64,000 bases of DNA, from the NCBI GenBank assembly GCA_030390025.1, contig CM059431.1, positions 154,878,001 through 154,942,000 of the forward strand, written 5' to 3'. This DNA comes from Squalus acanthias. Its lineage: Eukaryota. Within the stretch, counting starts at the first letter, position 1. Every line of letters begins with the position of its first letter. A program made the translations under genes and the position numbers. Positions 12,765 through 64,000 of the stretch are shown piece by piece. Under the pieces are notes generated by a model. The model was given only the letters and a program-made list of their open reading frames with translations, was not told where the DNA came from and made no database searches.

Positions 12765-12891
12765 GAAAATACTGCAAATGCTGGAAATCTGAAATAAAAA
12801 CAGAAAATGCTGGAGATACTCAGCAGGTCAGGCAGCATCTGTGAACAGAGAAAAATAGTTAACGTTTCAGGTGGATGACGTTTCGTCAGAA
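12765..12891 (-). mobile_element. Penelope-like 3' end remnant with degenerate hammerhead motif
   Basis: Matches 14246-14371; minus strand CTGACGA...GAAACGTT, helix II mismatched. Confidence 0.75.
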
Positions 12892-18339: not shown

Positions 18340-18635
18340 ATATACTAGTACTTCTTTCAATGCATTACGCTGTATTCGCTGTTCACAATGCGGACTCCGC
18401 TACAGTGGGGAGATCAACTGCAGAATCAGTAATTGCTTTGGTGAACACACCTGTTCACTCCGCAAGTGTGACCCTGAGCTTCTGGTAGCTGGCCATTTCA
18501 TTTCTCCATCGCACTGTGACCTCTTTGTACTCGGGCAATGAGGCTCATCAGAAGCTCGAGGAATAGCTCATCATCTTTTGATTAGGCACTTTGCCACCTT
18601 CCGGACTCAACACTGAGTTCAACAATTTTAGAACA
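18340..18635 (+). mobile_element. degenerate Penelope GIY-YIG fragment
   Basis: Similar to reverse complement of 14655-14959 (aagctcgaggaatagc...ggactcaacactgagttcaacaatttt). Confidence 0.75.
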
Positions 18636-18989
18636 AAGCCTCTGCTATCATTTGTTACGACTGCAGGTGCCGTTAATGGTTCTGCTGTTCAATGAAGAGT
18701 GTCCCGCTGGATGTTATCACAGAATTCAGAGCCGGATCCCAGATCTCATCTCGCTGCGATTGGTGATGGAACTCTGAACCTCATGACTCAGAGGCTAGAA
18801 TGTTGCCATGCAGTCGAATTCCTGAAGTGAACAGGAGTTATTATCAGGTGTGGACAGATTTAATTCAGTCCCAATTTTATAGGCATGCATTCTGTCGTTA
18901 TTTTTATATTAATATTTTGATTTGATATTATATTTGATAAATAATAACAAAACTATAGATAATTTAGCTTGCAGAGGTATAGTGTTCAC

Positions 18990-23164: not shown

Positions 23165-23990
23165 GACAATTTTCGTGTCATCTGCGAAATTACTGATCAT
23201 ACCTCCTACATTCATATCTGAAGCATTAATATACACTACAAACAGCAAAGGACACAACACCGATCCCTGTAGTACACCACTGGACACAAGCTTCCAGACA
23301 AACAAACAGCCTTCGAGCATTACCCTCTGCCTCCTGCCACTAAGGCAATTTTGGATCCAATGTGCCATGTTGCCCTGGATCCCATGGGCTCTTACCTTCT
23401 TGACCAGTCTCCCATGCGGGACTTTGTTAAAATCCTTACAGAAGTCCATGTAGAACACATCAACTGCAATACCCTCATCCACACACCTAGTCAGCCCCTG
23501 GAAAAATTCAATAAAATTGGTCAGACATGATCTCCCCCTGACAAAGCAATGAGGACTATCCATGATTAATCCTTGCATCTCCAATTGGAAACCAATTCTG
23601 TTCATCAGAATGTTTTCCAATAATTTACCTAACACTGATGTTAGGCTCAATGGCCTGTAATTCCCTGGTGTATCCCTGCTACCCTTCTTGAATAATGGTA
23701 CTACGTTAGCTGTTCTCTAGTACTCTGGCACTTTCCAGTGGCCAAAGAGGTTCTGAAAATGTGTGTCAGAGCCCCTGCAATCTCCTCCCTTGCCTCACCC
23801 AACAGCCTGGGATACATTTCGTCTGGGCCTGTGGATTTATCCACTTTTAAGCCCGCTAAAATCACTAGTACATTGTCCCTCTCAATACTAATGTGTTTAT
23901 GTATATCACATTCCCCCTGCCTGATTTCTATGCCTACATCGTCCTTCTCCATAGTGAACACAGATGCAAAATATTCATTTACAACCCCAT
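23165..23990 (-). mobile_element. CR1 RT fragment
   Basis: ORFs 23099-23650 and 23701-23997 resemble 6690-7510. Confidence 0.88.
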
Positions 23991-25599: not shown

Positions 25600-27100
25600 A
25601 TTGATGGCAATAAGGATTAGAATGTCAAGAAACGGCTGAGCGCACTGGAAACAGCAAAGTCTATGTGCCACAACAACATTCCGTTTTCGTGCTGAAGACT
25701 CCTTCTCCAGAACTAGCCGCGCTTCCAGCCAAGCTGTTCCAGTACAACTAAATAACAGGCACAATCCGAAAATATGGAAATCTGCGCAGGTATGCCCTGT
25801 CCACAAAAAGTAGGACAAATCCAAAAAGGCCAATTACCGCCCCATCAATCTACTCCCAATCATCAGCAATGTGATGGAAGGTGTCATCGACACTGCCATA
25901 AAGCGGCACTTACTCAACATTAACCTGCTCACTGATGCCCAGTTTGGATTCAGCCGATTCCACTCGGCTCCCAAGCTCATTACAGCCTTGGTCCAAACAT
26001 GGACAAAGGAGCTGAATTCCAGATGTGAGGTGAGAGTAAATGCCCCTGACATCAATGCAGCATTTGACCGAGTGTGGCATCAAGGAGCCCTCGTAAAACT
26101 GAACTCAATGGAAATCGGGGAGAAAACGCTCCACTGGCTGGAGTCATAAATAACACAAAGGAAGATGGTTGTGGTGATTGAGGGTCAATCATCACATCCC
26201 CAGGTCATCGCTGCAGGAGTTCCTCAGGGCAGTTTCCTAGGCGCAACCATCTTCAGCTGCTTCAGCAATGACCTTCCCTCCATCATACGTTCAGAAAAGG
26301 AGAAGTTATCTGATGACTGAACAGTGTTTAGCGCTATTCACAATTCCTCAGATGATGAAGCAGTCCATGCTTGCATGGAACAACACCTGGACGACGTTCA
26401 GGATTGGCGTTTAAGTGGCAGGTAGCATTCGCGCCACAGAAGTGGCAGGCAATGAGTATCCCCAACAAGTGAGAGACTAACGACCTCCCCTTGACACTCA
26501 ATGACATTACCATCGCCGAATCCTGCACCATCAACATCCTGGGGGTCCCCATTGACCAGAAAATTAACTGGACCAGCCACATAAATACTTTGGCATCAAT
26601 AACAGATCAGAGGTTCGGTATTCTGCGGCGAGTGTCTCACCTCCTGACTCCCCAAAGCCTTTCTACCATCTACAAGGCACAAGTAAGGAGTCTGATGGAA
26701 TACTCTACACTTGCCTGGATGAGTGCAGCTCCAACAATGCTCATGAAGCTCGACACCATCCAGGACAAGATGCACTGCAGCAACTCGCCAAGGCTTCTTC
26801 GGCAACACCTCCAAAACCCGCGGCCTCTTCCACCTAAAAGGACAAGGGCAGCAGACGCATGGGAGCACCACCAGCTCCACGTTCCCCTCCAAGTCACACA
26901 CCACCCTGACCTAGAAATATATCGCAGTTCCTTCATCATCGCTGTGTCAAAATCATTGAACTCCTTCCCTAACAGCACTGTTGGAGTAACTTCACCACCC
27001 GGAGTGAAGCGGTTCAAGAAGGCGGCTCACCATCATCTTCTCAAGCGCAATTAGTGATGGGCAATAAATGCTGGCCTTGCCAGTGACTCTCAGAACACAT
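25600..27100 (+). mobile_element. 3' half of tRNA/Deu-headed LINE family member
   Basis: RT region (MEGVIDTAIKRHLL...AFDRVWHQG) and tail gggcaataaatgctggccttgccag shared with 62000-63590. Confidence 0.85.
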
Positions 27101-28544
27101 AAGCGAATTACATAAAGTATAAAGGGCCTGAACCCAAGATTAATAGAGCCAGGATTTGAATGTTGTTCATTTACACACAGTTAGACTGTGGAGAACGTAT
27201 CTGCTAATGATCGAAATGGAAGTTAATTCCAAAAACTTAACGTTTCACATCAGAGAGTTCACTGCCCTTCCCTCTAAAATTGAACCAAAATAACTAACAA
27301 CGATCTTTGTCCGTTGCTATCAGTGGCCTTTTGTATTCTGATAATACAGAAGTTTTATGGGCAGCAAAAAACTAATATTGCGGCACTGAACTGAATCCGA
27401 CAGCAGGAGCCGATTTCGCTGTGGGGTCTTCTGAAACCGGGCGCGGGGGGGTGGGGGGGGGCGGGGGAGAGATAAAAATTGCTACCACACAAATAATTAA
27501 AAGATTTGCTTAAGATATCAGTTATTTCCCAGAACAATTTAAATCGAATGAGAATGTGCGTGATTCAGTTTGAGCCCTGTCACAGAGAACAGGGCTGGGA
27601 TAGATCGTACTGATCAGACTGAAGTTCGTGTTTATGACTGTGATGTGTAACTGATCTTTACCCAGGGTGTGCGCATTACCCTGCAGAACTCACAACGCAA
27701 ACATAACCTGACATCATGGAAACAGAATCAGGAGCCGCAGCACAAGTACTCAGAATGCACTCAGCGCAATCAAAGTGCTTTAATGTACCGGAATGTACTC
27801 ATCGCCGTTTATTTGGGTAGTTGTTTAATGTTATTGAAAAGTTATAGTATCAATTATGGATCAGTTAAGAATGCATTATTTTTCAGCAATTCATATACTG
27901 GAAGCAGCGCCATTTAACAGTGTAATACTTCCAAATGTAAACTCACAGACTAAAATGCCACTTTTGGAAATACTATTTAAATATGTTCTCGTTTATGTCA
28001 CCACTCTGAACAATAATATACTGTTCTAGATTTTTAACATGAAAAAGAGCGATTATCCTTTACGGAAATCCAAAGTTTTTACGACTGGAGGCATTAGTTT
28101 GACTCGCATTGACCTCAAGAAGCTTCTAGGTCAATCTGATGCAAATGCAGCATTCTTGTCAATGTGCGTTGCTGTCACCTCTTCTCTGGCATTTAAATCT
28201 TGCACCTGTAAGCATTTCGGGAACAAAGGATTTCAGGTGTCACCCGAACTAAACGTTGGTGAGCAGGTTATTGATGAGTGATAGTTGCTTGATGGCGCTA
28301 TTGATGAATCCACACTTCACTTTGCTGATTATTGAGGGGTGGCTTGTCGGCCGGTAATTGGTTCGACTCAATCTGTCGTAATTTTGTGGATAGGACATAG
28401 CTGAGCCCCCAAAACATCTTTATAAAGTGCAAAAACCATGGTCAACATGTGAGATAAGACAGAGTAAAAACCTAAATGAAGGGACTGACACAAATATAAA
28501 GAAATACGGTAATACACTAAACGGAGAAATAAAGAATTAATTAT

Positions 28545-28970
28545 TGGGATGTGGGCATCGTTGGCAAGGCCGGCATTTATTGCCCATCCCTAGTTGCATT
28601 GAGAATGTGTTGGATAGCGGCCTTCTTGAACCGCTGCAGTCCGTGTTTGATGCAACTGTGTCGCTTGCTAGACCATTTCAGAGGGCGATTAAGAGTCAAC
28701 AACATTGCTACGGGACTGGAGTCACAAAGAGTGCAGACAGGGTAAGTTCGGACGAATTCCTTCCCTGAAGGAAATTAATGAACCAGATGGGTTTTTGCGA
28801 CAATCTAGTATATTCATGGTCAACATTGCTGAGACTCGATTTTTGTTCCAGATATGTTTAATTAAATGCATTTAAATTCCCCAGCTGCCGCAATGGAATT
28901 TTGAACTCGTCATCGGATCATTAGTCCAGGCCTCTGGATTATTGACCAGTAACTTAACCACTATGCTAAC
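28545..28970 (-). mobile_element. SacSINE1-like tRNA-derived Deu-domain SINE
   Basis: Minus strand A-box tagcatagtgg, B-box gagttcaaaattcc; body matches 60520-60690, tail matches 63485-63585. Confidence 0.8.
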
Positions 28971-28999
28971 GTATCCACCATTCCTTCAACTATCAGTTT

Positions 29000-30129: not shown

Positions 30130-31800
30130 TAAACTAGGGCTCCTTGATTCCACACTCGGTCAAATGTTGCCTTGATGTCAAGGGCAGCCACTCTCATCTC
30201 ACCTCTGGAATTCAGCTCCTTTGTCCATGTTTGGAACAAGGCTGTAATGAGGTCGGGAGCCGAGTGGTCTTGGTGGAACCTAAACTGAGCACCAGTGAGC
30301 ATGTTATTGGGGAGTAATTGCCGCTTGATAGCACTGTTGCTGACACCTTCCATCACTTTGCAGGTGATTGATAGTCGACTGATGGGGCGGTAATTGGCTC
30401 TATTGGATTTGTCCAGCTTTTAGTGGACAGTACATACTTGGGCAGTTTTCCACATTGTCGGATAGATGCCAGTGTTGTAGCTGTACTGGAACAGCTTGGC
30501 TAGAGGCGCAGCTAATTCTGGAGCACATGTCTTCAGCACGATAGCCGGGATGTTGTCGGGGCCCACAGCCTTTTCTGTATCCAGTGCGCTCAGCCGTTTC
30601 TTGATACCACTTGCAGTAAATCGAATTGGCTGAAGACTAGCTTCTGTGACGGTGGTGAACTCAGGAGTAGGCCGATATGGTTCATCCACTCGGCACTTCT
30701 GGCTATAGATGGTTGCAAACGCTTCAGCCTTGTCTTTTGCACTCACGTGCTGAGCTCCACCATCGTTGAGGCTGGGGATATTCTCTCTTCCCGTTAGATG
30801 TTTAATGGTCAACCACCATTCACGACTGGATGTGGCAGGGCTGCAGAGCTTTGATCTCATCCGTTGTTTGTGGGATCACTTAAAATTGTGTATAACATGC
30901 TGCTTTCGCTATTTAGCATGCATGTAGTCCTGATGTTGCAGCTTCCCTGGAAGGCACCTCATTTTTAGGTACGCCTGGTGCTGCTCCTTTCAAGATCTTC
31001 TAAACTCCTTATTGGACCAGGGTTGGTCCGATGGCTTGATGGTAATTTTAGCTTGAGGGATATGCGTGGCCATGAGGTTACAGATTGTGGTTTAATACAA
31101 TTCTTCTGCTGCTGATGTCCCACATCGTCTCAAGGATCCCCAGTTTTGAGCTGCTAGATCTGTTCTGAATTTCTCACCACCTGTCGCAGGCCTAGACTGG
31201 CAGTTATGTGCTTCAGGACTCGGCCAGCTCGGTCAGTAGTGGTGCTACCGATCCACTCTTGGTGGACATTGATGTCCCTCACCCAGCGTAAATTCTGTGC
31301 ACTTGCTACTCGCAGTGCTTCTTACAAGTGGTGTTCAACATGAAGGAGTACTGATTCATCAACTGAGGAAGGGCGTTAGTTGGTAATCAGCAGGAGGTTT
31401 CCTTACCCGTGCTTCACCTGAAGCCATGAGAATTCATGGGGTCCGGAGTCAATGCTAAGGACACCCAGGGCCACTCCTTGCCGACTGTATACCTCTGTGC
31501 CGTCACCCAGGGATGGTGATGGAGGTATTTGGGACATTGCCTGAAGATATGGTTCTGTGAGTATGACTATGTCAGGCTGTTTCTTGACTAGCCTGTGGGA
31601 CAGCTGAACAATCTTGGCAACAGTCCCCAGATGTTGGTGAGGATGACTTTGCGTGTTCGACTGGGCTAGGTGTGCCATTGTCATGTCCGTAGCCGATGCC
31701 TGGTGGCCAGTTGGATTTCATTCTTATTAATTTGTTTCGTAGCGGTTTTGTTATAACTGAGTGGCTTGCTCGGCCATTTCAGAGGGCAGTTAAGCGTCAA
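30130..31800 (-). mobile_element. 5' two-thirds of tRNA/Deu-headed LINE family member
   Basis: Deu end at 31750-31800, then APE (QPDIVILTE) and GPDNIPAIVLKTCAPELAAPLAKLFQ. Confidence 0.85.
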
Positions 31801-32099
31801 CGAATTGGCAGCCGGTTTTACGCCCTGAGCGATTTATTTTAATTTACTTTTATTTAGCAAGGGATACATCTTCATTTTGTGCGAAGGTGGGTTGTTTAGA
31901 CTCTATCTTCTTGGAGGAAGTCATTGCTATGCATTTGTGTGACGCAAATGTTATTTGCAAATGTTCCTTTCTGCTAGTATCCAGGAGGTAAAGAGAGGTT
32001 AAGAGAAAGGATTAGCAGGCAAAATGAAATTGAACCATAAAACAATTGATAAGCATTTCAGGCAACATTTAATCTCTCCTGCCTTCAATCTAGCACAGA

Positions 32100-32330
32100 C
32101 TACCCTTTCAATTCCTTCCTCACCTACCCGTCCACCGCCCCGCCCTTTCCCTGCATCTGGACCTGCTTAAAACCTGTTACATTTTCAACTTTTACCAGTT
32201 TTGACGACAGATAACAGACCTGAAACGTTAACTATGTTTCTGTTTCCACGGACTTTGCTTGGTCTGCTGAGTTTTCCAGCATTCTCTGTTGTTATTTCAG
32301 ATTTCCAGCATTCGAAGTTATTTGCTATTG
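32100..32330 (+). mobile_element. Penelope 3' remnant with mutated hammerhead
   Basis: cagttttgacga...gacctgaaacgttaact...atttcagatttccagca. Confidence 0.7.
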
Positions 32331-32616
32331 TGTAAGTTCTAAGCGGTTTGGTCAGGAAAATGTTGGGCCTATTAAGGACGCAATGGGAAATCTTCATATA
32401 GAGGCAGAGGGCATGGCATCAGTATAGTGAGAGATAAAGCAGACATTATAAAATATTAGCATTAATGAAAGTTGTTAATCACCTGGTCCAGATGGATTGC
32501 ACCTAGGTTGCTGAATGAAGTAACGGTGGAAATAATGGTGGCATTGTTCACAATCCTTTAACCCTCATTGGGTACTGGATTAGTGCTAGAGGACTAGAGG
32601 TATGCTAATGTTATAT

Positions 32617-32858
32617 TGTTGAGGCTGCCGTGAAACACAAATTATGGCTGAATCGATTTGTGGAAAACAAGAGACTTGTTTAATGCGACTGCATGGTACA
32701 AAATGGCTGAACAGACTGCTCCCAGAATTCTCTGAAAAAATCCTGAGGCCCCGCCCACTCCTGCCTTAAAGGTAAGGTGCCTTAAAGGGAAGGTGCTCGA
32801 TATTTGTCCATGGACGGCAAAGTAGAAAATGCCCGTTTAAGTGGCGATCCGCAACACA
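32617..32858 (-). repeat. 3' LTR of Gypsy element
   Basis: tgttgaggctgccgtgaaacac...caca; adjacent PPT (minus strand ggggggagc). Confidence 0.85.
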
Positions 32859-35800
32859 GCTCCCCCCAGAATCCGCTTAGGAGGTGTGGACGAGACGGTG
32901 CAGCGGTCTGATGGGCCAGCCGGAGCGGCTCTTGTAGGACGCCGGTGGACGTGGAATGGCCGGGCGTGGAGCAGCCGGGTGAACCGGATTGAGGGCAGGT
33001 CGGCCGCGTGGATGTGGACGAGCTACATGGACCTGCTCACCGGGCTCCGAGTGTGCTGACTTGAGTCGGTCAACCGACACTTTTTCGGTCCTGTCGCAGG
33101 GTGAAAAATTTGTCCCCAGCCTGTAGCACCTTGTCAGGCCCGTCGTACGGGGGTTGAAGTGGTCGTCGTGTTGGACGAAATAAAAACCGTGCATTGTGCA
33201 GGCTTAGTGGGACGTGTGAGGTGGATTCACCGTGTCGGGCAATAGGCACTGGGGCAAACTGCAGCGCCGGTGAGGTGAAGTCGTGGCGTTGCTGGTCGGC
33301 TGACCAGGGTGTTGTGGTGCTGGGCAGGAACTCGCCGGGTACGTGCAGCGGCTGACCATACACGAGCTCTGCTGCCGATGCATGGAGGTCTTCTTTAACT
33401 GCGTTGCACAGGCCGAGGAGGACCCGCGGTTGTCGGTCGGTCCAGACGCCTTCCTGGACGCTGGCTCGAAGAGACGCCTTCAAGGATCTGTGGAACCGCT
33501 CACACAGTCCGTTGGCTTGGGGGTGGTACGTTGTGGTGCGGTGAATGGTCACCCCGAGATTGCTTGCGACGGCGGTCCAGAGTTCAGAGGTAAATTGCAG
33601 ACCTCTGTCCGATGTCATGTCGGAGGGGACGCTGAACCGTGCGACCCAGGTGCTGACGAAGGCTCTGGCGATGTCGGCGGTGGTGGTAGAGGTCAGTGGA
33701 ATTGCCTCAGGTCAGCTTGTGGTGCGGTCAACGATGGTCAGCAAGTGCGTGTGGCCTTGCGATGGCGGCAGGGGCCCGATGATGTCCACGTAGATGTGGT
33801 CGAATCTCCGCGAGGGGACGGTAAAATCCTCGAGGTGTCCTTTCGTGTGTTGCTGTACCTTGGCCCGTTGGCAGGCTGGGCAGGAGTGGGCCCAAGTACG
33901 AACATCCTTGCGAAGGCCGCGCCAGACAAAGCGGTTGTCTACCAATTTGATGGATGAGCGGGCGCCGGGGTGGGAGAGGTTGTGGAGAATGTCGAATAGC
34001 CGGCAGCGCCAGGACGCTGGGACGACGGGCCGAGGTTGACATAGGGATATGTCGCACTTGACCGTGACTGCGGTCGGGCCACAGGCGACGTCGGCCAGGC
34101 GTAGCCCTGGTAGGTTGCTGGGTGCGGAGAGCAGATCAGGGTCGGTGATCTGGTCAGCTGCGAGTTGAGCGTATTCGACTGCTAGGTGTGTGGCGTGGAT
34201 GGAAGGGCGGGAGAGGCAGTCGTCTACCACATTGTCTCGGCCGGAGACGTGTTGGATGTCCGTGGTGAACTCGGACACTGCCGTGAGCTGGCGCTGCTGC
34301 CTGGTGGACCAGGGGTCGGTTGTCTTTGCCATTGCGAATGTCAGGGTCTTGTGGTCGACAAACGCAGTGAAGAGGTGGCCCTCAAGCAAAAACCGGAAAT
34401 GGCGGACCGCCAGGAACAGCGCGAGGAACTCGCCGTCGAAGGTGCTGTACTTGACCTCCGGGGGGCATAGTTGGCAGCTGAAAAAGGCAAGTGGTTGCCA
34501 GGCGCCGTCGACGCACTGCTCATACACGGCTCCGACCGCGTGGTTGGAGGCGTCCGTGGTGAGCGCTACCCTGGAATTTGGCCATGGGTGCGTGAGCAGG
34601 TTGGTGTTGTTGAGCGCGGTCTTGGTGGAATCTAAGGCGGCGGACGTGTCTGCCGTCCATTCGACCGCCATCTTGCCGCTCCTGCCCCGGAGGGCTTCCT
34701 ACAGGGGCCTCAAGAGGGACGCCGCTTTGGGGATGAAGCGCTTATAGAAATTCACCATCCCGAGGAGCTTCTGGAGGCCTTTGATGGTGGTGGGGCGGGG
34801 AAATTGTTGGACGGCCTGCACCTTGGTGGGCAGGGGAATGGCTCCAGCATGGGTGATGTGGTGACCGAAGAAGTCGATCTTTACCAGGCCGAACTGGCAT
34901 TTGGCTGGGCTGAGGATGAGCCCGTGGTCACTGAGGCGCCCGAAAAGGATGCGAAGGTTTTCGAGGTGTTCCTGGTTGGAGGAACTGGCTACCAGGATGT
35001 TGTCCAGGTAGATGAACAGGAACTTCAGGTCCCGAAGGACCGAGTCCATGAGCCTTTGGAATGCCTGGGCCGCGTTTTTGAGGCCGAAGGGCATCCGCAG
35101 CAACTCGAACAGGCAGAAGGGGGTGTTTACGGCCGTCTTGGGGACGTCCGCGGGGTGGACGGGACTTGGTGGTAGCCGCGCACCAGGTCGACCTTGGAAA
35201 AGACTGAGCGGCCGGCCAGTCTAGCCGAGAAGTCCTGAATGTGCGGCACGGGGTACCGATCAGCGATGGTGGCGTCATTGAGGCGGCGGTAATCCCCGCA
35301 GGGGCGCCAACCTCCGCCTGGTTTGGGAGCGATGTATAGTGGTGAGGCCCAGGGACTGTTGGCGCGGCGGATGATGCCGAGCTGTTCCATGGTGGCAAAC
35401 TCGGTCCGCGCGATCTCCAGTTTTCCGGGTCCAGCCTGTGGGCATGGGCGTACACTGGGGGGCATGTGGTGGAGATGAAGTGTTCCACCCCGTGTTTGCC
35501 GGCCTCCGCGGAGAAGGTCGGATTGGTAAGGGCCGGGAATTCAGCCAGGAGTGCCGAGTAGTCATCCGTGGCCCGGGCGTGGCACTGTGACGCCTTGTCG
35601 GTGGGTTGACGGGGGGCCATGGCGCCCAGAGTGGAGGACATGGTGTTCATGTCCATGAGGCGGTGATGAGGGATGTCTAGCAGTAAGCCGTGGGCACACA
35701 GGAAATCTGCGCTGATGAGGGGGGAGAGCACCTTGGCAGTGATGAACTCCCATCGGTAGCGGTGACCAGCGAGGTCGAGGGTGACTGTCCGGGTGCCATA

Positions 35801-36709: not shown

Positions 36710-36975
36710 TGTTGAGGCTGCCGTGAAACACGAATGGAGGCTGCATCCATATGTGGGAAAGCAAGAAAACTTTAATTCACTGCATGGCACACAAAAAAAT
36801 GGCTGAGAGTTGCTCCCAGAATTCCCTGCTAAAAACTCCCAGAACTCTCTGGGTAAAACCTGAGGCCCCGCCCCCTTCTGCCTTAAAGGTAATGTGCCTT
36901 AAAGGGGAAGGTGCGGGAAATTTGTCCACAGACGGAAAAGTGGATTACGCCAGTTTTTGGTGGCGAACCGCCACA
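36710..36975 (-). repeat. 5' LTR of Gypsy element
   Basis: Diverged direct repeat of 32617-32858. Confidence 0.85.
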
Positions 36976-37009
36976 GCTGAACTCTTTAAGAAACAAAAAC
37001 TAACAAATT

Positions 37010-37280
37010 GTGACAAAAACACAAAATGGTGGAAACACATAGCAGGTCGGGTTACATCTGTGGAGAGAGAAACCGAGTTACCGTTTCAGGTCGATGACCT
37101 TTCATCAGACTGGAAAATGTTAGCGATTAACAGGGGCTGTGTAGGAAAAGAACAAAAGGAATGAATAAACTGCACAACTAACTGTGATGGCATGTAGGGC
37201 AGAAGTGATTAGATGACAAAAGTGATGCTGATGCAGGGATAATGAGGTGATACTGAGGCAAGGGTAGAAACAAAAGATCC
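37010..37280 (-). mobile_element. Penelope 3' remnant with mutated hammerhead
   Basis: Minus strand ctgatgaaaggtcatcgacctgaaacggt. Confidence 0.7.
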
Positions 37281-39420: not shown

Positions 39421-39579
39421 ATATGGTTTACTTTTAAACACCTTGGACCCAAAACCAGATTAGAATTGCTATCTCAGCCCCCAGTTCACCCGAATTAGCA
39501 CCTATTCAAGACAAGCACGCACAGCTGCTCATTGACAGTTACCAGAAGTTTAGAAAATATTTCAAGTACTTGAATTTTA

Positions 39580-39900
39580 TTCGTTCTTGGGATGTGGACG
39601 TCACTGCCAAGTCTAGCATTTATTGCTCATCGCTAATTGGCCTTGAGAAGGTAGGAGTGAGCCGCCTTCTTGAACCGCAGCAGTCCGTGTGGTGAAGGTA
39701 CTCCCACAGTGCTGTTAGGTCGGGAGTTCAAGGATTTTGACACAGCGACGATGAAGAAACGGCGAGATATTTCCAAGTTACGATGGTGTGTAACTTGGAG
39801 GGGAACTTGCAGGTGATGGACTTCCCATGCTCCTGCTATCCTTGTCATTCACGGTGGAAGAGATCGCGGCTTTGGGAGGTGCTGCCGAAGAAGCCTCAGC
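39580..39900 (-). mobile_element. 3' end of tRNA/Deu-headed LINE family member
   Basis: Reverse complement resembles 63270-63590. Confidence 0.8.
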
Positions 39901-41179
39901 GAGATATATTCATAGAGTCATAACGGCACAGCAAGAGGCCATTCGGCCCAACGAGTCCGTGACGACTCTCTGCAGAGCAATCGCGTCAGACCCATTCCCC
40001 CGCTCTTTCCCCATAGCCCTGCAAGTTTATTTCCCTCAAGTGCCTATCCAGTCTCCCCTTGAAAACATTGAGTGTCTCCGCTTGCACCACTTCCGTTGGC
40101 AGCGAAATCCAGGTCATCACCACTCACTGCGTAAAAACGATGTTCCTCACATCCTCCTGTATCTCTTGGCCAAAACCTTAAATCTGTTCCCCCCTAGTCC
40201 TTGTACAATCAATTTATGGGAACAGCCTTTCCCCGTCTAGCCTATCTAGACCCATCATAATCGTGTACACCTCTATCAAATCATCCCTCAACCTCCGTTG
40301 CTCTAATGAAAACAAATTCAGCTTCTCCAACCTATCCTTGTAGCTAAGATCCCCCATCCCCGAAACCATTTTGGTAAATCTTCTCTGCACCCTCTCAAGG
40401 ACCTTCACATCCTTCCTAAAGTGTAGTGACGAGAACTGGACGCAATACTCCAGTTGTGGCTTAACCAGCGCTTTAAAAAGGTTCAGCATAACTTCACTAC
40501 TATTTTACTCAATACCTCTACTTATGAAGCCCACTATCGCATATGCTTTGTCAACCACTACCTCAATATGCCTGATACCTTCAGGGACCTATGCACATTA
40601 ACTCCTAGGTCCCTCTCTCCCTGCACATTCTTAAAATCTGCGCCATTAAGTGTATATTGCCTCTCCCTGTTCCTTCTGCCAAAATGCATCACCTCACACT
40701 TCTCTGTATTAAATTCCATCTGCCACTTTTCTGCCAATTCTGCCAGCCTTTCTATTTCCTGTAGCAGTCGATTGATAGCATTATCACTGTTTCCCACATC
40801 CCCAAGTTTGGTTTAATCGGTAAATGTAGAAATTTTACTCAGTATTCCAATATCCAGGTCATTTATATATATCAAAAAAAGCAGTAGCCCCAGCACTGAC
40901 CCTTTGGGAACACCATTATCTTCCATTCTCCAGTCTGACAAACAGTCATTTACCAAAACGCGCTCTTCTGTCTTTAAGTCAATTCATTTTACAAGCTGCA
41001 CTGACCCACCTATTCCATGAGCCTCAATTTTGCTATCCACCCTTCTATGTGATACTTTGTCAAACGCCTTCCGAAAATCCATGCAGACAACATCCATTGC
41101 ATTTCCTTCATCAATCTTCTCTATTACTACATCAAAAAATGCAATTAAGTTTATTCAAACACGATCTGCCTTTTCCAAA

Positions 41180-41318
41180 TACAAAAGCAAAATACTGCGG
41201 ATGCTGGAAATCCGAAATAACAACAGAAAACGCTGGAATAACTCAGCAGGTGAGGCAGCATCCGTGGAGAGAGATAGAGAGTTAACTTTTCAGGTCGCCG
41301 ACCTTTCGTCAGAACTTT
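41180..41318 (-). mobile_element. Penelope 3' remnant with mutated hammerhead, nested in CR1
   Basis: Near copy of 14243-14372; imperfect TSD ttttccaaa / ttttacaaa. Confidence 0.8.
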
Positions 41319-45085: not shown

Positions 45086-46587
45086 TAAAGCCCTCCCTCC
45101 TGCACCATCTCTCCAGCCACGCGTTCATCTGTTCTTTCCTCCTTTTCCTGTACTCACTAGCACATGGCACCGGGAGTAATCCGGAGATTACTAGCTTTGA
45201 GGTCCTGCTTTTTAATCTCTCTCCTAGCTCCCTAAACTCTGCCTGCATGACCTCATCCCTCTTTCTGCAAATGTCGTTGGTACCGATATGGACAACGACC
45301 TTTGGCTGTTCACCCTCCCCCCATAGATTGTCCTGCAGCCGGTCAGTGACATCCTTGACTCTGGCACCAGGGAGGCAAAATACCATCCTGGCGTCACGTC
45401 TATGGAGAAATGCCACACTGTTCCCCTAACTATCGAAACCCCTACCACTATTTCTCTTCCGGTATTTTTCCTACCACCGTGACTCTGAGCCACCCGTGGT
45501 GCCGCGGACTTGACACTGACTGCACTCCCCAGAGGAACTATCGCTGTCACCACTACTCAGAAATTAATACTGGTTTTAGAGTGCGATGAACTCTGGGGTC
45601 GCATGCACTACCTGCCTGGTCCTCCTCTTCTGTCTGGCGATCACCCATTCCCTCTCGTCCTGCATATTCTTAAGCTGCGGGGTGACCACCTCCGGAAACG
45701 TGCTATCCACGTAACTCTCAACCTTGCGGATGCACTGCAGTGATTCCAGCAGCCAATCAATCTCCGAAACACGGCGCTCGTGTTGCTGTTGCTGTTGACT
45801 CATCCCGCACATGTGATCTATCATGCTAAGCGAAGTGTCCAGGACTTCCCAGATGGCACAGGATGCGGAATCCACTGGACTGAGCTGCCCTTCCCTGCCT
45901 CAATTTAACAGATGAATAACTAACCCAGCAGAAATAAATTTAAATGTTAACAAAAAAAAATCCCCAGCTACTCACCAATCAGCACTTTCCCTTAACTTAA
46001 TATACTATTAACGAACTTAGCATAAATAAACTTAAAAACTTTAAAAAAATGCATTCACCAGTGAATCAACAATCAGCTCCTTCCGTGTATTAATTTCCAG
46101 CTGCCACTTGTCTGCCCGTTCTGCTACCCTTTCTATGTCCTGTTGCAGTCGAATGGTATCATCGTCACTGTATGCCACACCCCCACGTTTGGTGTAATAG
46201 CCACATTTAGAAATCCAACTTTTGAGGAACTCAACATATGTTAACCAAATTTTCCATAAGGGAAGGCGGTAAGCTGCAATTGTCTCTTAAAGAAGCATGT
46301 CAAATGCTCAGCACTCTCCCTGAAGTGTTAAAGGAATTATCCAGGCAACAAAGAAAACCTGTCATTTAGCATTATACAATTTTAGACCAAATACATTTAT
46401 GTTAATACAAAAATAGTATCTGCTATGCAAGTGTAAAACTGTTCAAATATCAATAATACAACCTGTATACAAGTTGCCAGATTCTGTGCTCAGCTGATCA
46501 TAAAAACTTGTTTTTTTAGTCCAATAAGTAATTATGATCACAACAGAGAGGAAAATGAAGGATATGTACAAGACACTCATTGCGAAT

Positions 46588-49500
46588 TAAATCTGCCGTC
46601 CTTACCTGGTCTGGCCTATATGTGACTTCAGACCCAATGTGATTGATTCCTAGCTGCCCTTTCCAATGGCCTAGCAAGCCATGCAGTTGCAAACAACCGC
46701 GACGGTACACAATATACTGAATAAACGTGGACGGACCACCGCCACCGACCTCGGCACCGACTACGGTCGCGACAACGGCACACCCAGTCCAGTGGACCCG
46801 GCAAAGTCCTCCTCACCAACTTCTAGGGACTTGTGCCAAAATTGGGAGAGATGTCCCACAGACTATTCAAGAAAGAGCCTGACATAGTCATACTCACATA
46901 ATTATTCCTTTAAGCCAATGTCCCAAACTCCTCCATCACCATCCCTGGGAATGTCCTGTCCCATCGGCAGGACAGTCCCACCAGGGGTGGCGGCACAGTG
47001 ATATACAGTCCGGAAGGTGTGGCTCTGGTTGTTTTCAACATTTACTCCAGACTCCATGTAGTTTCATGGCTTCAGGTCAAGCATGGGCAAGGACACCTCC
47101 TGCTGATTACAACCTACCGCCCTCCCCCAGCCGATGAACCAGTACTTCTTCATGTTGAACACCACTTGGAAGAAGTAATGAGGGTAGCAAAGGCACAGAA
47201 TGTCCTTTGGGTGGGGGACTTCAATGTCCATCACAAAGAGAGGCTCGGTAGCGCCACTACTGACCGAGCTTGTCCGAGACCTGGAGGACGGAGCAACCAG
47301 TCTGGGCCTAAGACAGATATTGAGAGAACCAACACGAGGGAAAAACCTTCTTGACCTCGTCCTCACCAATCTACCTGTCGCAGATGCATCTGTCCATGAC
47401 AGCATTGTTAGCAGTGACCACCGCACAATCATTTTGGATACGAAGTCCCGTTTTCACGCTGAAGGTACCCTCCATCGTGTTCTGTGTCACTACCACCGTG
47501 CTAAATGGGATAGATTCGGAACAGATCTAGCAGCTCCAAACTGGTCATCCATGAGGCGCTGCGAGCCATCAGCAGCAGCACAATTGTATTCCACCACAAT
47601 CTGTAACCTCATGGCCCGGCATATCCCTTCCTCTAACATTACCATCAAGCCAGGGGACGAACACTGTTTCAGTAAGGAGTGTAGAAGTGCATGCCAGGAG
47701 CAGCACCAGACGTACCTAAAAATGAGGTGCCAAATGTGGGGAAGCTGCAGCACAGGAATACATGCATGTGAAAAAGGGGAAGCAGCATGCTATAGACAGG
47801 ACTGAGCGATCCCAAAATCAACGGATCAGATCACACCTCTGCAGTCCTCTTACATCCAATCGTGAATGGTGGTGGACCATTAAACAACTACTGGGAGGCG
47901 GAGGCTCCATGAATATCCCCATCCTCAATGATGGTTGTGCCCAGCACGTGAGTACAAAAGACAAGGCTGAAGCGTTTCGAACCATCATCAGCCAGAAGTG
48001 CCGAGTGTATGATTCATATCGGCCTACTCCTGATGTCCCCGCCATCACAAGCCATTTTTCAGCCAATTCGATTCACTTCACGTGATATCAAGAAATGGTT
48101 TAGCGCACTGGATACAACACAAGCTATGGGCCCCGACAACATCCCGGCTATCGTGCTGAAGACTTGTGCTTCAGGACCAGCCTTGCCTCTAGCCAAGCTA
48201 TTCCAGTACAGCTACAACACTGGCATCTATCCGACAACGTGGAAAACCGCCCAATTACCGCCCCATCAATCTACTCTCAATCATCGACAAAATGATGTTA
48301 GGTGTAATTAACAGTGCTATCAAGCGGCACTTACTCACCAATAAACTGTTCAATGATGCCCAGTTTCTGTTACGCAAAGACCACTCAGCTCCCGATCTCA
48401 TTACAGCCTAGGTCCCACCATGGACAAAGGGGCAGAATTCAAGCGGTGAGGTGAGAGTGTCTGCCCTTGACATCAAGGCAGTAATTGGCCGGGTGTGGCA
48501 TCAAGGAGCCCTAGTAAAACAGAAGTCAAAGGAAATCGAGGGGAAAACTCTCCACTGGCTGGAATCATACCTAGCACAAAGAAAGGTGGGTATGGTGGTT
48601 GAAGGTCAATCACCGCAGCCCCAGGACATCGCAGCAGGAGTTCCTCAGGTTAGTGTCCTAGGCCCAATCATCTTCAGCTGCTTCATCAATGATCTTCTCA
48701 CCAACATAACGTCAGAAATGGGGATGTTCGCTGATGACTGCAAAGGGTTTAGCACCATTCAGAACTCCTCGGATAAAGAAGCAGTCCATGCCCGCATGCA
48801 ACAAGACCTGGACGACGTTCAGGTTTGGGCTGATAAGTGGCAGATAACATTCACGCCGCACAAGTGCCAGGCAAATGAACATCACCAACAAACGAAATTC
48901 TAACCACCTCCGCTTTTTTCAAGGCTGGGAACTGAACATCCAGGGGTATTCAACATTCAGAAAGGATAGAATAAAAGGAAAAGGGGTGGGGTAGCATTGC
49001 TGGTTAAAGAGGAGATTAATGCAATAGCTAGGAAGGACATCAGCTTGGAGGATGTGGAATCAATATGGGTTCAGCTGCAGAACACCAAAGGGCAGAAAAC
49101 GTTAGTGGGAGTTGTGTACAGACCTGCAAACAGCAGTAGTGAGGTGGGGGAGGGTATGAAACAGGAAATCAGAGGTGCGTGCAAAAAAGGCACGGCAGTT
49201 ATCATGGGTGACTTTAATATGCATATAGATTGGGCTACTCAAACTGGAAGCAATACAGTGGAGGAGGATTTCCTGGAGTGTTTAAGGGATGGTTTCCTAA
49301 ACCAATATGTTGAGGAACCAACTCGAGGGGAGGCCATCCTGGACTGGGTGTTGTGTAATGAGGAAGGACTAATCAGCAATCTTGTGGTACAAGGCCCCCT
49401 GGGGAAGAGTGACCATAGTATGGTGGAGTTCTCCATTAGGATGGAGAAGGAAACAGTTAAGTCAGAGACCATGGTCCAGAACTTAAATAAGGCAAACTTT

Positions 49501-52245
49501 GAGGGTATGAGGCGTGAATTGGCGAGGTTAAATTGGCAAGCGATATTTAAGGGGCTATCAGTGGAAGGGCAATGTCAGACATTTAGAGATCGCATGGATG
49601 AACTACAACAATTGTACATCCCGGTCTGGCATAAAAATAAAAAAGGGAAGGTGGCTCAACCATGGCTAACAAGGGAAATCAGCGATAGTATTAAAACCAA
49701 GGAAGTTGCATACAAATTGGCCAGAAGTAGCAGCAAGCCCGGGGACAGGGAGAACTTCAAAACTCAGCAGAGGAGGACGATGGGTTTGATTAGGCAGGGA
49801 AAATAAAATATGAAAGGAAGCTTGCAGAGAACATTAAAATGGAATGCAAAAGCTTCTATAAATATGTAAAAAGAAAGAGGTTAGTAAAAACAAACGTAGG
49901 TCCCCTGCAGTCGGAAACAGGGGAAGTCGTAATGGGGAACAAGGAAATGGCTGATCAATTGAACAAGTACTTTGGTTCGGTGTTTACTGTGGAGGACACA
50001 CACAACCTGCCGGAAATAAAAGGGGTCAGAGGATCTGGTAAGAGGGAGGAGCTGAGGGAAATCCTTATTACTCGGGAAAAGGTATTGGGGAAATTGATGG
50101 GACTGAAGGCTGAAAAATCCCCGGAGCCTGATGGTCTGCATCCCAGAGTACTTAAGGAGGTGGCCTTGGAAATAGTGGATGCATTGACGATCATTTTCCA
50201 ACAATCATTAGACTCTGGATCAGTTCCGATGGAGTGGAGGGTGGCCAATGTAACCCCTCTTTTTAAAAAAGGAGGGAGGGAGAAACCAGGGAATTATAGA
50301 CCGGTCAGCCTGACATCGGTCGTGGGTAAAGTGATGGAAGCAATTATTAAAGATGTCATAACAGACCATTTGGAAAGTGGCGACATGATAGGTCCAAGTC
50401 AGCATGGATATGTGAAAGAGAAATCATGCTTGACAAATCTTTTGGAATTTTTTGAGGATGTTTCCAATAGGGTGGACAGGGGGGAACCAGTAGATGTGGT
50501 GTATTTGGACTTTCAGAAGGCCTTCGACAAGGTCCCACACAAGAGATTGGTGAGCAAAGTTAAAGCACATGGGATTGGGGGTAATGTGTTGACGTGGATT
50601 GAGAACTGGTTGGCACACAGGAAACAAAGCGTAGGAGTAAATGGGTACTTTTCAGAATGGCAGGCAGTGACCAGCGGGGTACCGCAGGGTTCGGTGCTGG
50701 AACCCCAGCTGTTTACATTATATATTAATGATTTGGACGAAGAGATGAAATGTAATATCTCCAAATTTGCTGATGACACTAAATTGGGAGGCAGTGTGAA
50801 TAATGAGGAGGATGCTAGGAGGCTACAGAGTGACTTGGACAGGTTGGGTGAATGGGCAAATGTATTGCAGATGAATTACAATGTGGATAAATGTGAGGTT
50901 ATCCACTTTGGTGGTAAAAATAGAGAGGCGGACTATTACCTGAATGGTGGCAGATTAGGGAAAGGGGAGGTGCAACGAGACCTGGTCTCCTAACTTAAGG
51001 AAGGACATTCTTGCTATTGGGGGAGCGCAGCGAAGGTTCACTAGATTGATTCCAGGGATGGCCGGTCTGACATATCAAGAAAGGTTGGGTCAACTGAACT
51101 TGTATCCACTGGAGTTCAGAAGAATGAGGGGGGATCTTATAGAGACATTTAAAATCCTGACTAGTTTAGACAAATTAGATGCGGGCAGAATGTTCCCAAT
51201 GTTAGGGAAAACTAGAACCAGGGGTCACAGTCTAAGGATTAAGGGGAAGCCATTTAAGACTGAGCTGAGAAGGAACTTCTTCACCCAGAGAGTGGTGAAT
51301 CTATGGAATTCTCTACCACAGAAGGTTGTTGAGGCCAGTTCGCTAAATATATTCAAAAGGGAGTTAGATATAACACTCACAACTAGGGGGATCAAGGTGT
51401 ATGGCGAGAAAGCAGGAATGGGGTACTAAGGTAGCATGTCCAGCCATGAACGCATTGATTGGCGGTGCAGGCTCGAAGGACCGAATGGTCTACTCCTGTA
51501 CCTATTTTCTATGTTTCTATGTTTCTATGTAATTCAACGGCATTACAATCGCCGAATCCCACAACATCAGCATCCTGGGGGTCACCATTGACCAGAAATT
51601 TAAGTGGATCAGTCAAAAAAATATTGAGGCAACAAGAGCAGTTTAGAACCTAGATATTCTGCGGCGAGTGTCCCACCGCGTGACTCCAGAAATCCTTTCC
51701 TCCATCTCCAAGGGACAAGTAAGGAGTGTGAAGGAATACTCTCCACTTGACTGGATGTGTGCAGCTCCAGCAACACTCAAGAAGCTCGACACCATCCAGG
51801 ACTTAGCAGGCCGCTTGATTGGCATCCTTTCGACCACCTTAAACATTCACTCCTTCCATCAGCGGAGTACCGTGGCTCCACTGTGTACGATCTACAAGAT
51901 GCATTGCAGAAACTCGCCAAGGCTTATTCGACAGCACCTCCCAAACCCGCAAAGTCTTCCACGTAGAAGGACAAGGGCAGCAGACGCATGGGAACACCAC
52001 CACCTCCAAATTCCCCTCCAAATCACACACCATCCTGACTTGGAAGTATATCGCCGATCCTTCAATGTTGCTGATTCAAAATCCTGGAAATCCCTCTCTA
52101 ACAGCACTGTGGGCGTACCTTCACCACCAGGACTGCAGCCGGTCAGGAAGGCGGCTCACCACCACATTCGTAAGGGCAATTAGGGATGGGCAATAAATGC
52201 TGGCCTTGCCAGCGATGCTCACATCCCATAAACGAATAAATACAA
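46588..52245 (+). mobile_element. tRNA/Deu-headed LINE copy (head truncated), split by a nested CR1
   Basis: Deu end 46588-46690, APE (TTYRPP, VGDFN, SDH), RT (MFADD) to 48915, resumes 51533-52245; collinear with 60585-63606. Confidence 0.88.
48923..51532 (+). mobile_element. 5'-truncated CR1 LINE nested in Deu-LINE
   Basis: ORFs 48997-49806, 49839-50993, 51046-51429; internal deletion near 50985; (TTTCTATG)n tail; possible TSD ttcaa. Confidence 0.92.
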
Positions 52246-60352: not shown

Positions 60353-60363
60353 TCCATTAGAAC

Positions 60364-63300
60364 GGTAGCATAGTGGTAATGTCACTGGTACCAGTAATCC
60401 AGCAGGACTGAGCTAATGATCCGGTAAACGTGGGTTCAAATTCCACCACGGAAGCAGGGGAATTTAAATTCAGTGTTAATTAAATAAATCTGTAATAAAA
60501 AGTTAGCATAAGTTAATGGTAACCATGAAACTATCAGATTGTCGTAAAAACCCATCTCCTTCAATAATGTCCTTTCGGGAAGGAAATCTGCCGTCCTTAC
60601 CTGGTCTGATCTATATATGTCTCCAGACCCACATAACTGTGGTTGTTTCTTAACTACGCTCTGAAATGGTCTATCAAGCCACTCAGTTGTAAAAAAACCC
60701 GCTACGAAACACAATAATAAGAATTAAACCGGACGGAACACACGGCATCGAACTCGGCACTGGCTTGGACACGGCAACGGCACACCAGGCGACCCTGCAA
60801 AGTCTTCCTCACCATCATCTGGGGCTTGTGCCAAAATTGGGAGAGTTGTGCCACAGACTAGGCAAGCAACAGCCTGACATAGTATTACTCACAGAATTAT
60901 AAATTTCAGCCAATGTCCCAAACTCTTCCATCACAATCCTAAGATATGCCCTGCCCCAGCGGCAGGACAAACCCACCAGGGGTGGTGGCACAGTGGTATA
61001 CAATCGGGAAGGAGTGGCCCTGGGAGTCCTCGACATTCACTCTGGACCCCATGAAGACTCATGGCTTCAGGTCAAGCACGGGCAAGGAAACCTCCTGCTG
61101 CTTACCACCTACCGCCCTTCCTCAGCTGTTGAATAAGTACTCCTCCACGTTGAGCACCACTTGGAAGAAGCAATGAGAGAAGCAAGGGCACAGAATGTAT
61201 TAACGTCCATCACCAAGAGTGGCTCGGCAGCACCAATGCTGGCCGAGTCCTGAAGTGCTCAGCTGCCAGTCTGGGCCAGCGACAGGTGGTGAGCGAACCA
61301 ACACGATGGAAAAACCTACTTGACCTCGGCCTCACCTATCGACCTGTCAGAGATGCATCTATCCATGACAGCATTGGTAGCAGTGACCGCCGCACAATCA
61401 TTCTGGAGACGAAGTCCCGTCTTCACACTGAGGACACACTCCATCGTGTTGTGTGGCACTACCACCGTGCTAAATGGGATAGCTACAGATCTAGCAGCTC
61501 AAACTTGGGCATCCATGAGGCGCTGTGGGCCATCAGCAGCAGCAGAATTGTATTCCACCACAATCTGTAACCTCATGGCCAGGCATATCCCTCACTCTAC
61601 CATTACCAATAAGCCAGGGGACCAACACTGTTTCAATAAGTAGTGTAGAAGAGAATGCCAAGAGCAGCAACAGGCGTACCTAAAAATGAGGTGCAAACGT
61701 GGGGAAGCTGCAACACAGGACTACATGCCTGTGAAAAAGGTGAAGAAGCATGCTTTAGACAAACGTAAGCGATCCCACAATCAACGGATCAGATCAAAGC
61801 TCTGCAGTCCAACCATATCCGGTCGTGGACCACGAAGTAACTATCGGGTGGAGGAGGCTCCATGAATATCCCCATCCTCAATGACGGTGGAGCCCAGCAC
61901 GTGACTGTACAAGATAAGGCTGAAGCGTTCGCAATCATCTTCAGCCAGAAGTGCCGAGTGGGTGATCCATATCGGCCTACTCCTGAGGTCCCTACCATCA
62001 CAGAAGCCAGTTTCCAGCCAATTCGATTCAGTCCACATGATATCAAAAAAAGGCTTAGCGCACTGGATACAACAAAGACTATGGGCCCCGAAAACAGCCC
62101 GGCTATCGTGCTGCAGAATTGGCCGCAACTCTAGTCAAGCTGTTCCAATGCAGCTACAACACTGGCATCTATCCGACAATTTGGAAAACTATCCAGGAAT
62201 GTCCTGTCCGCAAAAAGCAGGACAAATCCATACCGGCCAATTGACGCCCCATCGGTCTACTGTCAATCATCAGCAAAGTGATGGAAGGTTTCATCGACAG
62301 TGCTATCAAGCGGCACTTACTCACCAATAACCTGCTCACTGATGCCCAGTGTGGGTTCCAACAAGATCACTCGGATCCCGACCTCATTACAGCCTTGTTC
62401 CAAACATGGACAAACGAGCTGAATTCCAGAGGTGAAGTGAGAGTAACTGCCCTTGACATCAAGGCTGCATTTGACTGGATGTGGCATCAAGGTCCCCTAG
62501 TAAAATTTCAGTCAATGGGAATCGGAGGGAAAACTCTCCACTGGCTGGAGTCATACCTAGCACAAAGGCAGATGGTTGTGGTGCTTGAAGTTCAATCATC
62601 ACAAGCCCCAGGACATCGCTGCAGGTGTTCCTCAGGGAAGGTCCGAGGCACAACCATCTTCAGCTGCTTCATCAATGACATTTGCTCCAACCTAAGAGCA
62701 GAAATGGGGCTGTTAGCTGATGTCTGCACAGTGTACAGCGCCATTCACAACTCCTCTGATAAGGCAGCAGTTCATGCCCGCATGCAACATGACTTGGACG
62801 ACGTTCAGGTTTGGGCTGATCAGTGGCAGGTAACATTCGCGCCATAGAAGTGCCAGGCAATGACTATCTCCAAATTGCGAGAGTGTAACCACCAACCCTT
62901 GACTTTCAACGGCATTACCATCGCTGAATCCCCAATCATCACCATTGACCAGAAACTTAACTGGACTAGCCACATGAATACTTTACCAACAAGCGCAGGT
63001 CAGAGGCTAGGTATTCTGCGGCGAATTTCTCACCTCCTGATTAACCAAAGCCTTTCCAACATCTACAATGCGCAAGTAGAGGAGTGTGATGTAATACTCT
63101 CCTCTTCCTTGGGTGAGTGCAGCTCCAACAACACTCAAGAAGCTCGACACCATCCAGGACAAAGCAGCCCGTTTGATTGGCACCCCATCCAGCATCTTAA
63201 ACAATCACTCCCTCCACCACCGGCGTACCGTGGCTGCAATGTGTATCATCTATGAGATGCACAGCAACAGCTCGCCAAGGCTTCTTTGGCATCACCTCCC

Positions 63301-63606
63301 AAACCCGCGACCTCTTCCAAGTAGAAGGACAAGGGCAGCAGGCGCATGGGAACACCACCACCTCCAAGTTCCCCTCCAAGTCACACATCATCCAAACTTA
63401 GAAGTATATCGCCGATCCCTCATCGTCGCTGGGACAAAATCCTGGAACTCCCTACCTAACAGCAGTGTGGGAGTACTTTCACCACACAGAGTGCAGCGGT
63501 TCAAGAAGGCGGCTCACCTCCACCTTCTCAAGGGCAATTATAGATGGGCAATAAATGCTGGCCTTGCCAGCGACGCCCACATCGCATAATCGAATATAAA
63601 AAAAAA
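60364..63606 (+). mobile_element. full-length decayed tRNA/Deu-headed LINE lacking ORF1 (APE + RT, CR1-group)
   Basis: A-box 60366-60376, B-box 60433-60444, Deu-like body 60520-60690, APE from ~60800 (QQPDIVLLTE), RT 62278-62847, A-rich end. Confidence 0.88.
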
Positions 63607-64000
63607 GTGTTTACATTTTCCTACGTTTAACGTTCCCTATATTTGTTGTTTCCTCTGTTTATTTTCCCGATATTTAAAGTTACTGCTTTTACTGTTTCTT
63701 CTGTTTCTCCTTACCTATGCTTCGTGTTTCTTTTGTTTCCTCTTTCCTATGTTTATTGTTTCCTTTGTTTACTATTTCTTATGTTTCGTGTTACCTAAGT
63801 TTTCTGCATCTGATATTTGGAGTTTGTTATGCTTCCTATTTCCCAGGTTTACTTTTTCCAATCTTTTATATTCCCTATGGTTAGGTCTCACTTGTTTACT
63901 GTTTCCTCTGTTTCCCGCTCCCTCTGTTTACTGTTTCCTATGATTAGTTTTTCTTATATTTACTGTTTCTTATATTTGCTGTTTCTTATGTTTACTGATT
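63607..64000 (+). repeat. degenerate T-rich array, continuation
   Basis: Same motifs as 52250-57457. Confidence 0.8.

Follow-up and report, generated by a model that had tools for sequence, protein, structure and literature searches.

A short element of Squalus acanthias corresponding to the two ends of a putative tRNA-headed Zenon LINE

The origin of SINE bodies is obscure, and the birth of a SINE is commonly pictured as the joining of a small-RNA head to a piece of a LINE. It is established that SINEs carrying a LINE tail are copied in trans by the LINE protein, which acts on that tail (PMC5499810). Two sets of described elements come close to the one considered here. In moths, according to the text available to us, Persaeus arose several times from the LINE Zenon by internal deletion (Wang et al. 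2019, PMC6740152). For bipartite SINEs, the model of Kojima (2018, PMC5786205) puts the deletion first and the acquisition of the head later. Stuart et al. (2026, PMC13343379) describe Zenon from five elasmobranchs as devoid of ORF1 and ending in poly-A; in the consulted part of their survey, elasmobranchs, coelacanth and hagfish are the only vertebrate hosts, and Zenon is a lineage of the CR1 group different from the L2-2_CM/CR1-4_DR-like LINE. The Deu-SINE of sharks, SacSINE1, is described with an L2-type tail (PMC5499810; table in PMC3747384). The portion of a whale shark preprint at hand names CR1-Zenon once and tRNA never, and that of the dogfish genome paper uses SacSINE1 and HE1 as its only known SINEs. 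No earlier account of a shark LINE with a tRNA head or with Pol III transcription was found in the literature searched, outside which lay Repbase, Dfam and most subscription papers. The Zenon family itself is therefore not new; what the present analysis adds, for one window of the Squalus acanthias genome (the whole 64,000-nt stretch analysed), is the Zenon identity of a LINE, a negative Deu test for the short element that shares both its ends, and a direction of origin for the latter.

The short element and its partner LINE

The short element occupies about 28976-28537 of the minus strand, measures about 440 nt, is non-coding and consists of a head, a body and a tail, the last being common to it and the LINE. 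An earlier note on this DNA had equated this minus-strand SINE with both ends of the LINE at 60364-63606, and the alignments agree: 28972-28647 (minus) matches 60362-60696 (plus) in 251 of 326 columns (77% identity; BLAST E 3e-55, nhmmer E 1e-44), and 28646-28545 (minus) matches 63484-63585 (plus) with 84% identity (BLAST E 2e-25). About 330 nt from the 5′ end of the LINE and its last 100 nt or so make up the whole element, with no foreign sequence. Because the letters preceding the tail agree with the beginning of the LINE linker, the joint is placed at 28646-28645 (minus), where the LINE 5′ part (about 60698) meets the 3′ part (63484-63486) with a 2-nt AC overlap, the only direct repeat at the break; about 2.79 kb of the LINE is missing there. 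The same note had the tail follow directly upon a motif that it quoted. Six to eight further letters, matching the beginning of the LINE linker, intervene. Target-site duplications were looked for at the short element and at the full-length LINE and found at neither.

The tRNA-like head (28895..28976, minus; 5′ start set by eye against SquAca_Zenon-1) contains an A-box-like motif at 28968-28958 and a B-box-like motif at 28906-28895. The body of about 250 nt (28645..28894, minus) corresponds to the Zenon 5′ UTR with the first linker letters, is 77% identical to 60445-60698 and is also found in 5′-truncated LINE copies at 46584 and 31807. Its distal part shares 73-74% identity with the LINE copies, whose mutual identity is 66-80%, over alignments of 62-98 columns that are too short for dating the element. 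Beyond the joint (28645..28646), the tail (28537..28646, minus) holds the last 17 or so codons and the stop of the Zenon ORF, about 45 nt of 3′ UTR and a decayed A-rich end. It is 78-84% identical to four LINE 3′ ends, the LINE tails being 77-85% identical among themselves, and its 3′ UTR can fold into a hairpin of -18.5 kcal/mol, a value that carries no shuffle control.

The full-length LINE copy occupies about 60358-63606 on the plus strand. Its tRNA-like head (60358..60447; A-box-like 60366-60376, B-box-like 60433-60444) is followed by a 5′ UTR body and linker (60448..60785) that leave no space for an ORF1 and hold no in-frame ATG common to the copies before the endonuclease, by a single decayed APE-RT ORF with several stops and frame breaks (60786..63541), and by a 3′ UTR hairpin and poly-A tail (63542..63606). 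The tail was delimited from the sequence and from contigs in which it continues as an A-run, loose contig ends at 63583 running into such a stretch in runs X1, X15 and X6. As only about 430 nt lie upstream of the endonuclease, the LINE is taken to be without ORF1. In tblastn, residues 21-958 of a 962-aa relative (P0008) cover 60786-63529 (E 1e-122), and Pfam RVT_1 matches 62245-62844 (E 2.4e-16); a Pfam scan of three other pieces in the window gave no match.

Four further stretches belong to the same family. The second copy (46584..52240, plus) is 5′-truncated inside the body and interrupted at 48920-51530 by a CR1-type insertion, its halves resuming at places that correspond to 62893 and 62905 in the full copy. 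The third (30133..31807, minus) is 5′-truncated in the distal body, lacks the 3′ end and skips about 190 nt at 31173-31163 (from 61293 to 61485 in the numbering of the full copy), which indicates that internal deletions in this family extend beyond head-to-tail forms. Two 3′ fragments (25622..27108, plus; 39575..39903, minus) were assigned by sequence similarity. In all three window copies that reach the 5′ region, the body is joined to the same linker and APE; since the two 5′-truncated copies also continue in this way, the head is a trait of the LINE family and not of one chance chimera. Directly after two of the four Zenon 3′ ends in the window there begins a degenerate T-rich array with a period of about 16 (52250-57459; 63608-64000), for which a target preference and an old local duplication are candidate explanations.

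The window contains other repeats. Further LINE pieces lie at 1-864, 5977-7682, 19292-21990, 23167-23987, 40567-41115, 48920-51530 and 57454-60352, their RT rows forming a separate clade. Immediately before the full Zenon copy, a CR1-type element ends in a microsatellite tail (60352), and the tail at 60290-60350 resembles by eye that of CR1-1_CM. A repeat of about 140 nt, unrelated to the short element, is present in five copies that are 77-91% alike (12761-12891, 14225-14373, 32196-32335, 37015-37109 and 41172-41316), and two repeat pairs are 74% (32617-32861 and 36710-36978) and 70% (14642-14960 and 18348-18646) alike.

Judged from its sequence, the LINE at 60358-63606 is a member of the elasmobranch Zenon family; L2 and Crack/Daphne, which had been considered as its clade, were dropped after the match to the Zenon consensuses. 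Its head matches the published shark and ray consensuses deposited in the supplement of PMC13343379. The seven compared (SquAca_Zenon-1 to -3, CarCar, RhiTyp, ScyCan and HypSab_Zenon-1, from five shark and ray species) all begin with the same head and body, the Squalus consensus being the closest, and both parts are absent from hagfish Zenon-1 and -2 and coelacanth Zenon-1; each of these comparisons was made by eye over the first 400 nt. Among 1.84 billion proteins, the best RT match is a whale shark protein (56%). In a 50-row RT tree, which the three family copies of sufficient length entered and whose rows include no named Zenon references, these copies cluster with two whale shark proteins and one further protein (100/100) and, more widely, with amphioxus, wrasse and further proteins (95/83), at a distance from the six other LINE rows of the window. 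The wider clade includes P0212, P0217, P0216 and P0218, from the wrasse Xyrichtys novacula and from amphioxus. About 95 residues of the RT of this LINE (70% identity) also occur in P0001, a catshark cystathionine beta-synthase-like isoform model, where they are probably an exonised or mis-annotated piece of Zenon.

The tRNA character of the head, assumed in the earlier note, is in part upheld. Both heads show A- and B-box-like motifs, and the A/B-box pattern matches the window only at 60366 (plus) and 28968 (minus); this pattern was fitted after the heads had been inspected, a stricter one having been discarded because it missed the window's own heads. None of 81 retrieved loci matched it on the plus strand. 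The Rfam tRNA model matches 60365-60447 with 22.2 bits (E 0.038), under the gathering score of 29, and has no match in the short element up to an E of 5; ARAGORN at default settings found no tRNA. These results lend weak support to a decayed, tRNA-like head of the LINE. Among 80 metagenome relatives (30-43% RT identity), neither a match to the head profile at E up to 10 nor the A/B pattern was detected. Relaxed ARAGORN made 13 scattered calls on these relatives, which are uninformative since the same settings miss the window's own heads. Exact-pattern scans for body or tail found none in viral contigs, metagenome contigs or prokaryote genomes, and a protein scan of the viral contigs found no relative of the LINE.

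Origin of the short element

As sharks and rays both carry the head, it must have been on the LINE before the two groups separated, and the LINE probably gained it, as a tRNA-type head, prior to that split. Of the two options offered in the earlier note, capture of a head by the LINE is thus probably true, but as an older event, since all seven elasmobranch consensuses are already headed (by eye, over 400 nt). For the copy at hand, there is better support for the other option, by which it derives from the LINE through internal deletion. The stretch of 23 nt between the boxes of the short element is identical to that of SquAca_Zenon-1, and this stretch and two additional blocks downstream of the B box are of a Squalus type missing from the ray and the three galeomorph consensuses (by eye). 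Such sharing would imply that the short element split from the local LINE after the ray and galeomorph lineages had parted. Local Squalus changes are not expected in a SINE lineage that had been separate since the capture, except where heads were swapped afterwards; the same pattern could indeed arise by gene conversion between the heads of SINEs and LINEs.

Joints comparable to that of the short element were sought by aligning the LINE at 80% likeness to contigs of four runs, in each of which all 30 bins of the LINE were covered. Joints found at this likeness may stem from repeats, which are precisely the object here. Four of the best 15 of 715 joints run from head to tail, linking 60688-60696 to 63492-63557 in runs X1 and X6: 60688 to 63530 (two contigs of X6), 60691 to 63492 (four contigs of X1), 60691 to 63531 (one contig each of X1 and X6) and 60696 to 63557 (one contig of X1). 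The joints listed further include 60696 to 63492 and 60696 to 63481, and some have intervening letters similar to the linker as far as about 60712. The heterogeneity of the junction, whose mapping had been proposed earlier, is thereby documented as several break points in two of the four runs, among the best 15 of 715 joints. The remaining 11 of these 15 are internal skips of 31-1066 nt, such as 61482 to 62549 and 61957 to 62416. For X7 and X15, where pieces are few (169 and 353), no head-to-tail joint is among the best 15 of 715.

The simplest reading, and one that we consider likely, is that the short element came from the local LINE by internal deletion. It draws on the spacer-free joint, the varied break points, the shared Squalus-type blocks and the similarity of the tails, and it has a precedent in the repeated origin of Persaeus from Zenon. 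The short element would accordingly be a bipartite Zenon derivative, that is, a Zenon SIDE whose tRNA-type head is inherited. The 5′ exits of the head-to-tail joints fall within about 25 nt, and this clustering also fits a single ancient origin after which trimming continued. All other joined forms could descend from the longest one.

A less likely account, although one to be taken seriously, is that the short element is a deleted LINE insertion that arose once and left no further copies, an integration accident resembling a SINE. This account agrees with an origin by deletion and departs from the preferred reading only at the step at which Pol III transcription and copying in trans would make the product a SINE. 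Other internal deletions in the family (31173-31163 of the third copy and the two skips named above) would be in line with it, as would the facts that the exact joint of the short element (28646-28645) is absent from the best 15 of 715 joints and that this element is the only head-to-tail form of the LINE in the window. The number of head-to-tail joints among those 15, in several contigs and two runs, speaks against an accident, and so does the recurrence of individual break points, 60691 to 63492 being present in four contigs of one run and 60691 to 63531 in both X1 and X6.

It seems improbable that matters went the other way, with an independent tRNA-SINE lineage, mobilised by Zenon by way of a shared tail, passing its head on to the LINE through a template switch, and with the short element descending from that SINE. 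A tRNA-like head on a LINE must derive from a tRNA or a SINE; the head is missing from the hagfish and coelacanth consensuses (within their first 400 nt) and from the 80 metagenome relatives; the clustered 5′ exits look like a discrete family; and true SINEs with Zenon tails are described from bivalves in the available text of PMC11481361. However, the head of the short element is of the Squalus type (by eye), yet the capture predates the shark-ray split; moreover, the element contains no sequence foreign to the LINE, and the joints vary on both sides.

The body and the Deu domain

The earlier note had called the body a Deu body and the LINE Deu-headed. The Deu label was put to the test with two conserved motifs taken from the alignment in Fig. 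S4 of PMC7245038, not with a full profile, and is not supported: in the bodies, the two motifs match no better than in shuffles. At up to two mismatches, they have 0 and 2 matches in the window, against 0.39 and 0.88 expected by chance, and none falls in either element. The best sites of the first motif in the two heads have 6 and 5 mismatches of 15, equalled by 489 and 271 of 500 shuffles. For the second, the LINE head offers 5 mismatches of 14 (equalled by 417 of 500 shuffles) and the short element 3 of 14 (13 of 500), the latter site being located between the A and B boxes, outside the body. No real Deu reference copy was found in viral contigs, and a Streptomyces match (L081) considered as a Deu copy was taken as chance.

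By its alignment to the LINE, the body is best regarded as Zenon 5′ UTR. That it is instead a diverged Deu (Nin) domain, the LINE 5′ UTR and Deu-SINEs being of common origin, appears very improbable to us. By eye, the body has no match to UCON3, Meta or Deu rows, except for a gappy, unscored resemblance between 60541-60610 and the 3′ half of the Deu core, which would favour such a kinship, as would a stretch of 10 letters at 60588-60597 that resembles the start of the Deu core (likewise unscored) and the Deu-SINEs with Zenon tails that PMC11481361, in the part consulted, describes from bivalves. Apart from the motif counts, it is opposed by the position of the 10-letter look-alike, which lies downstream of the block that it ought to precede, and by the L2-type tail of SacSINE1. 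The bearing on the origin of the conserved Deu domain that had been expected of this locus falls away because the body is not Deu by this test and the tail is Zenon, unlike the L2-type tail given for SacSINE1 in PMC5499810. Similarity by chance or through an assembly artefact is practically negligible as an explanation of the short element, given the E-values of 3e-55 and 2e-25 and like joints in independent runs; the divergence of 16-23% between the short element and the LINE excludes mis-joined reads of one locus.

Transcription, a possible mechanism and known systems

Transcripts of Pol III have no cap. The full LINE copy contains no TTTT on its sense strand in 3224 nt, where 5.0 would be expected from base shuffles (0 of 200 as low) and 3.4 from dinucleotide shuffles (3 of 200). 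The pooled family pieces contain 6 over 9735 nt, the expected values being 15.1 and 11.7 (1 and 3 of 100 shuffles as low), and all six runs are private to a single copy where others overlap. One piece, 46584-48908, shows no deficit (4 against 3.1-3.9 expected), nor do the other LINE pieces of the window (40 against 28.9 and 40.1). In 50 of the 80 metagenome relatives, those with a frame of at least 1500 nt, 1130 TTTT were counted against 1049 expected. No in-frame ATG before the APE is common to three copies, the first that is common to two lying 125 codons in. An in-frame ATG in the distal body was rejected as the start, its distance to the APE varying among copies (132, 136 and 126 nt) and the published Squalus consensus containing, by eye, a stop codon in this frame. 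At 60666, an ATG that is out of frame is retained in all three LINE copies and in the short element.

The scarcity of TTTT and the lack of a shared AUG fit an uncapped transcript with non-AUG initiation, although this is unproven, and they make the LINE a candidate, equally unproven, for a coding LINE transcribed by Pol III. A Pol II promoter in the LINE body is possible as well. It is tempting to speculate that the autonomous Zenon is transcribed by Pol III from a captured tRNA-type promoter, that it is kept free of TTTT, that its AUG-less ORF is translated cap-independently by way of the body of about 250 nt, and that it repeatedly sheds SINEs by deletion; taken as a whole, we hold this scenario to be plausible but somewhat doubtful. 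A LINE made in this way would provide a protein-coding, capless transcript of Pol III, with A/B boxes, avoidance of TTTT and an AUG-less ORF as features open to test. The scenario would also open a direct route from LINE to SINE and give a conserved SINE body a testable role.

The steps could have been as follows. The ancestor of shark and ray Zenon would have acquired the tRNA-type head from a tRNA or from some SINE. Deletions of the ORF may have arisen through template jumping of the reverse transcriptase or through recombination at short overlaps. They would have kept the internal A/B-box promoter as well as the hairpin and poly-A at the 3′ end, both putative recognition features for the Zenon protein, so that the products could be transcribed by Pol III from the A/B boxes, be copied in trans by the Zenon APE-RT and act as SINEs as soon as formed. 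Since the LINE would itself start with a tRNA-like promoter, a plain deletion is enough to give a ready-made SINE. With such a head on an autonomous LINE of sharks and rays, one deletion would yield a complete SINE, whose body would have the LINE 5′ UTR as its source.

The window LINE and the elasmobranch Zenon of PMC13343379 are alike in their 5′ sequence (by eye), a length of about 3.3 kb, the lack of ORF1, the single APE-RT ORF and the poly-A. The main text of that paper has no mention of 'tRNA' or 'polymerase III'; in its consulted part, no short derivative is described, and the head is present in the deposited sequence without remark. With SacSINE1 and other Deu-SINEs, as described in the available text of PMC5499810, the short element shares a tRNA-type head, a length of about 430-460 nt and a shark host. 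Deu-SINEs, whose head may be tRNA- or 5S-derived, however, carry the Deu motifs that the short element lacks in the two-motif test based on PMC7245038 (Fig. S4), and the tail of SacSINE1 is L2-2_CM/CR1-4_DR-like whereas that of the short element is Zenon, a contrast that rests on the description of SacSINE1.

Persaeus, a Zenon SIDE of Lepidoptera in which, on the account consulted (PMC6740152), the 5′ UTR and ORF start are joined to the ORF end, 3′ UTR and poly-A, displays variable break points, microhomology and repeated origins from the local LINE. The short element has in common with it that it consists only of the two ends of its partner LINE. Persaeus is described without tRNA homology or a Pol III promoter and with a variable central region; the shark element, by contrast, bears A/B-box-like motifs that come from the LINE and has no central insert. 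The bipartite SINEs Bov-tA, AfroSINE and SINE2-1_ACar/Vingi-2_ACar resemble the short element in the succession of tRNA head, LINE 5′ body and LINE 3′ tail, as far as the available text of PMC5786205 goes. In their case, the head was added onto a deleted LINE and the LINE itself is headless, whereas in the shark the autonomous LINE bears the head. The order of events in the shark would thus reverse that of Kojima's model, the head having been on the LINE before the deletion took place.
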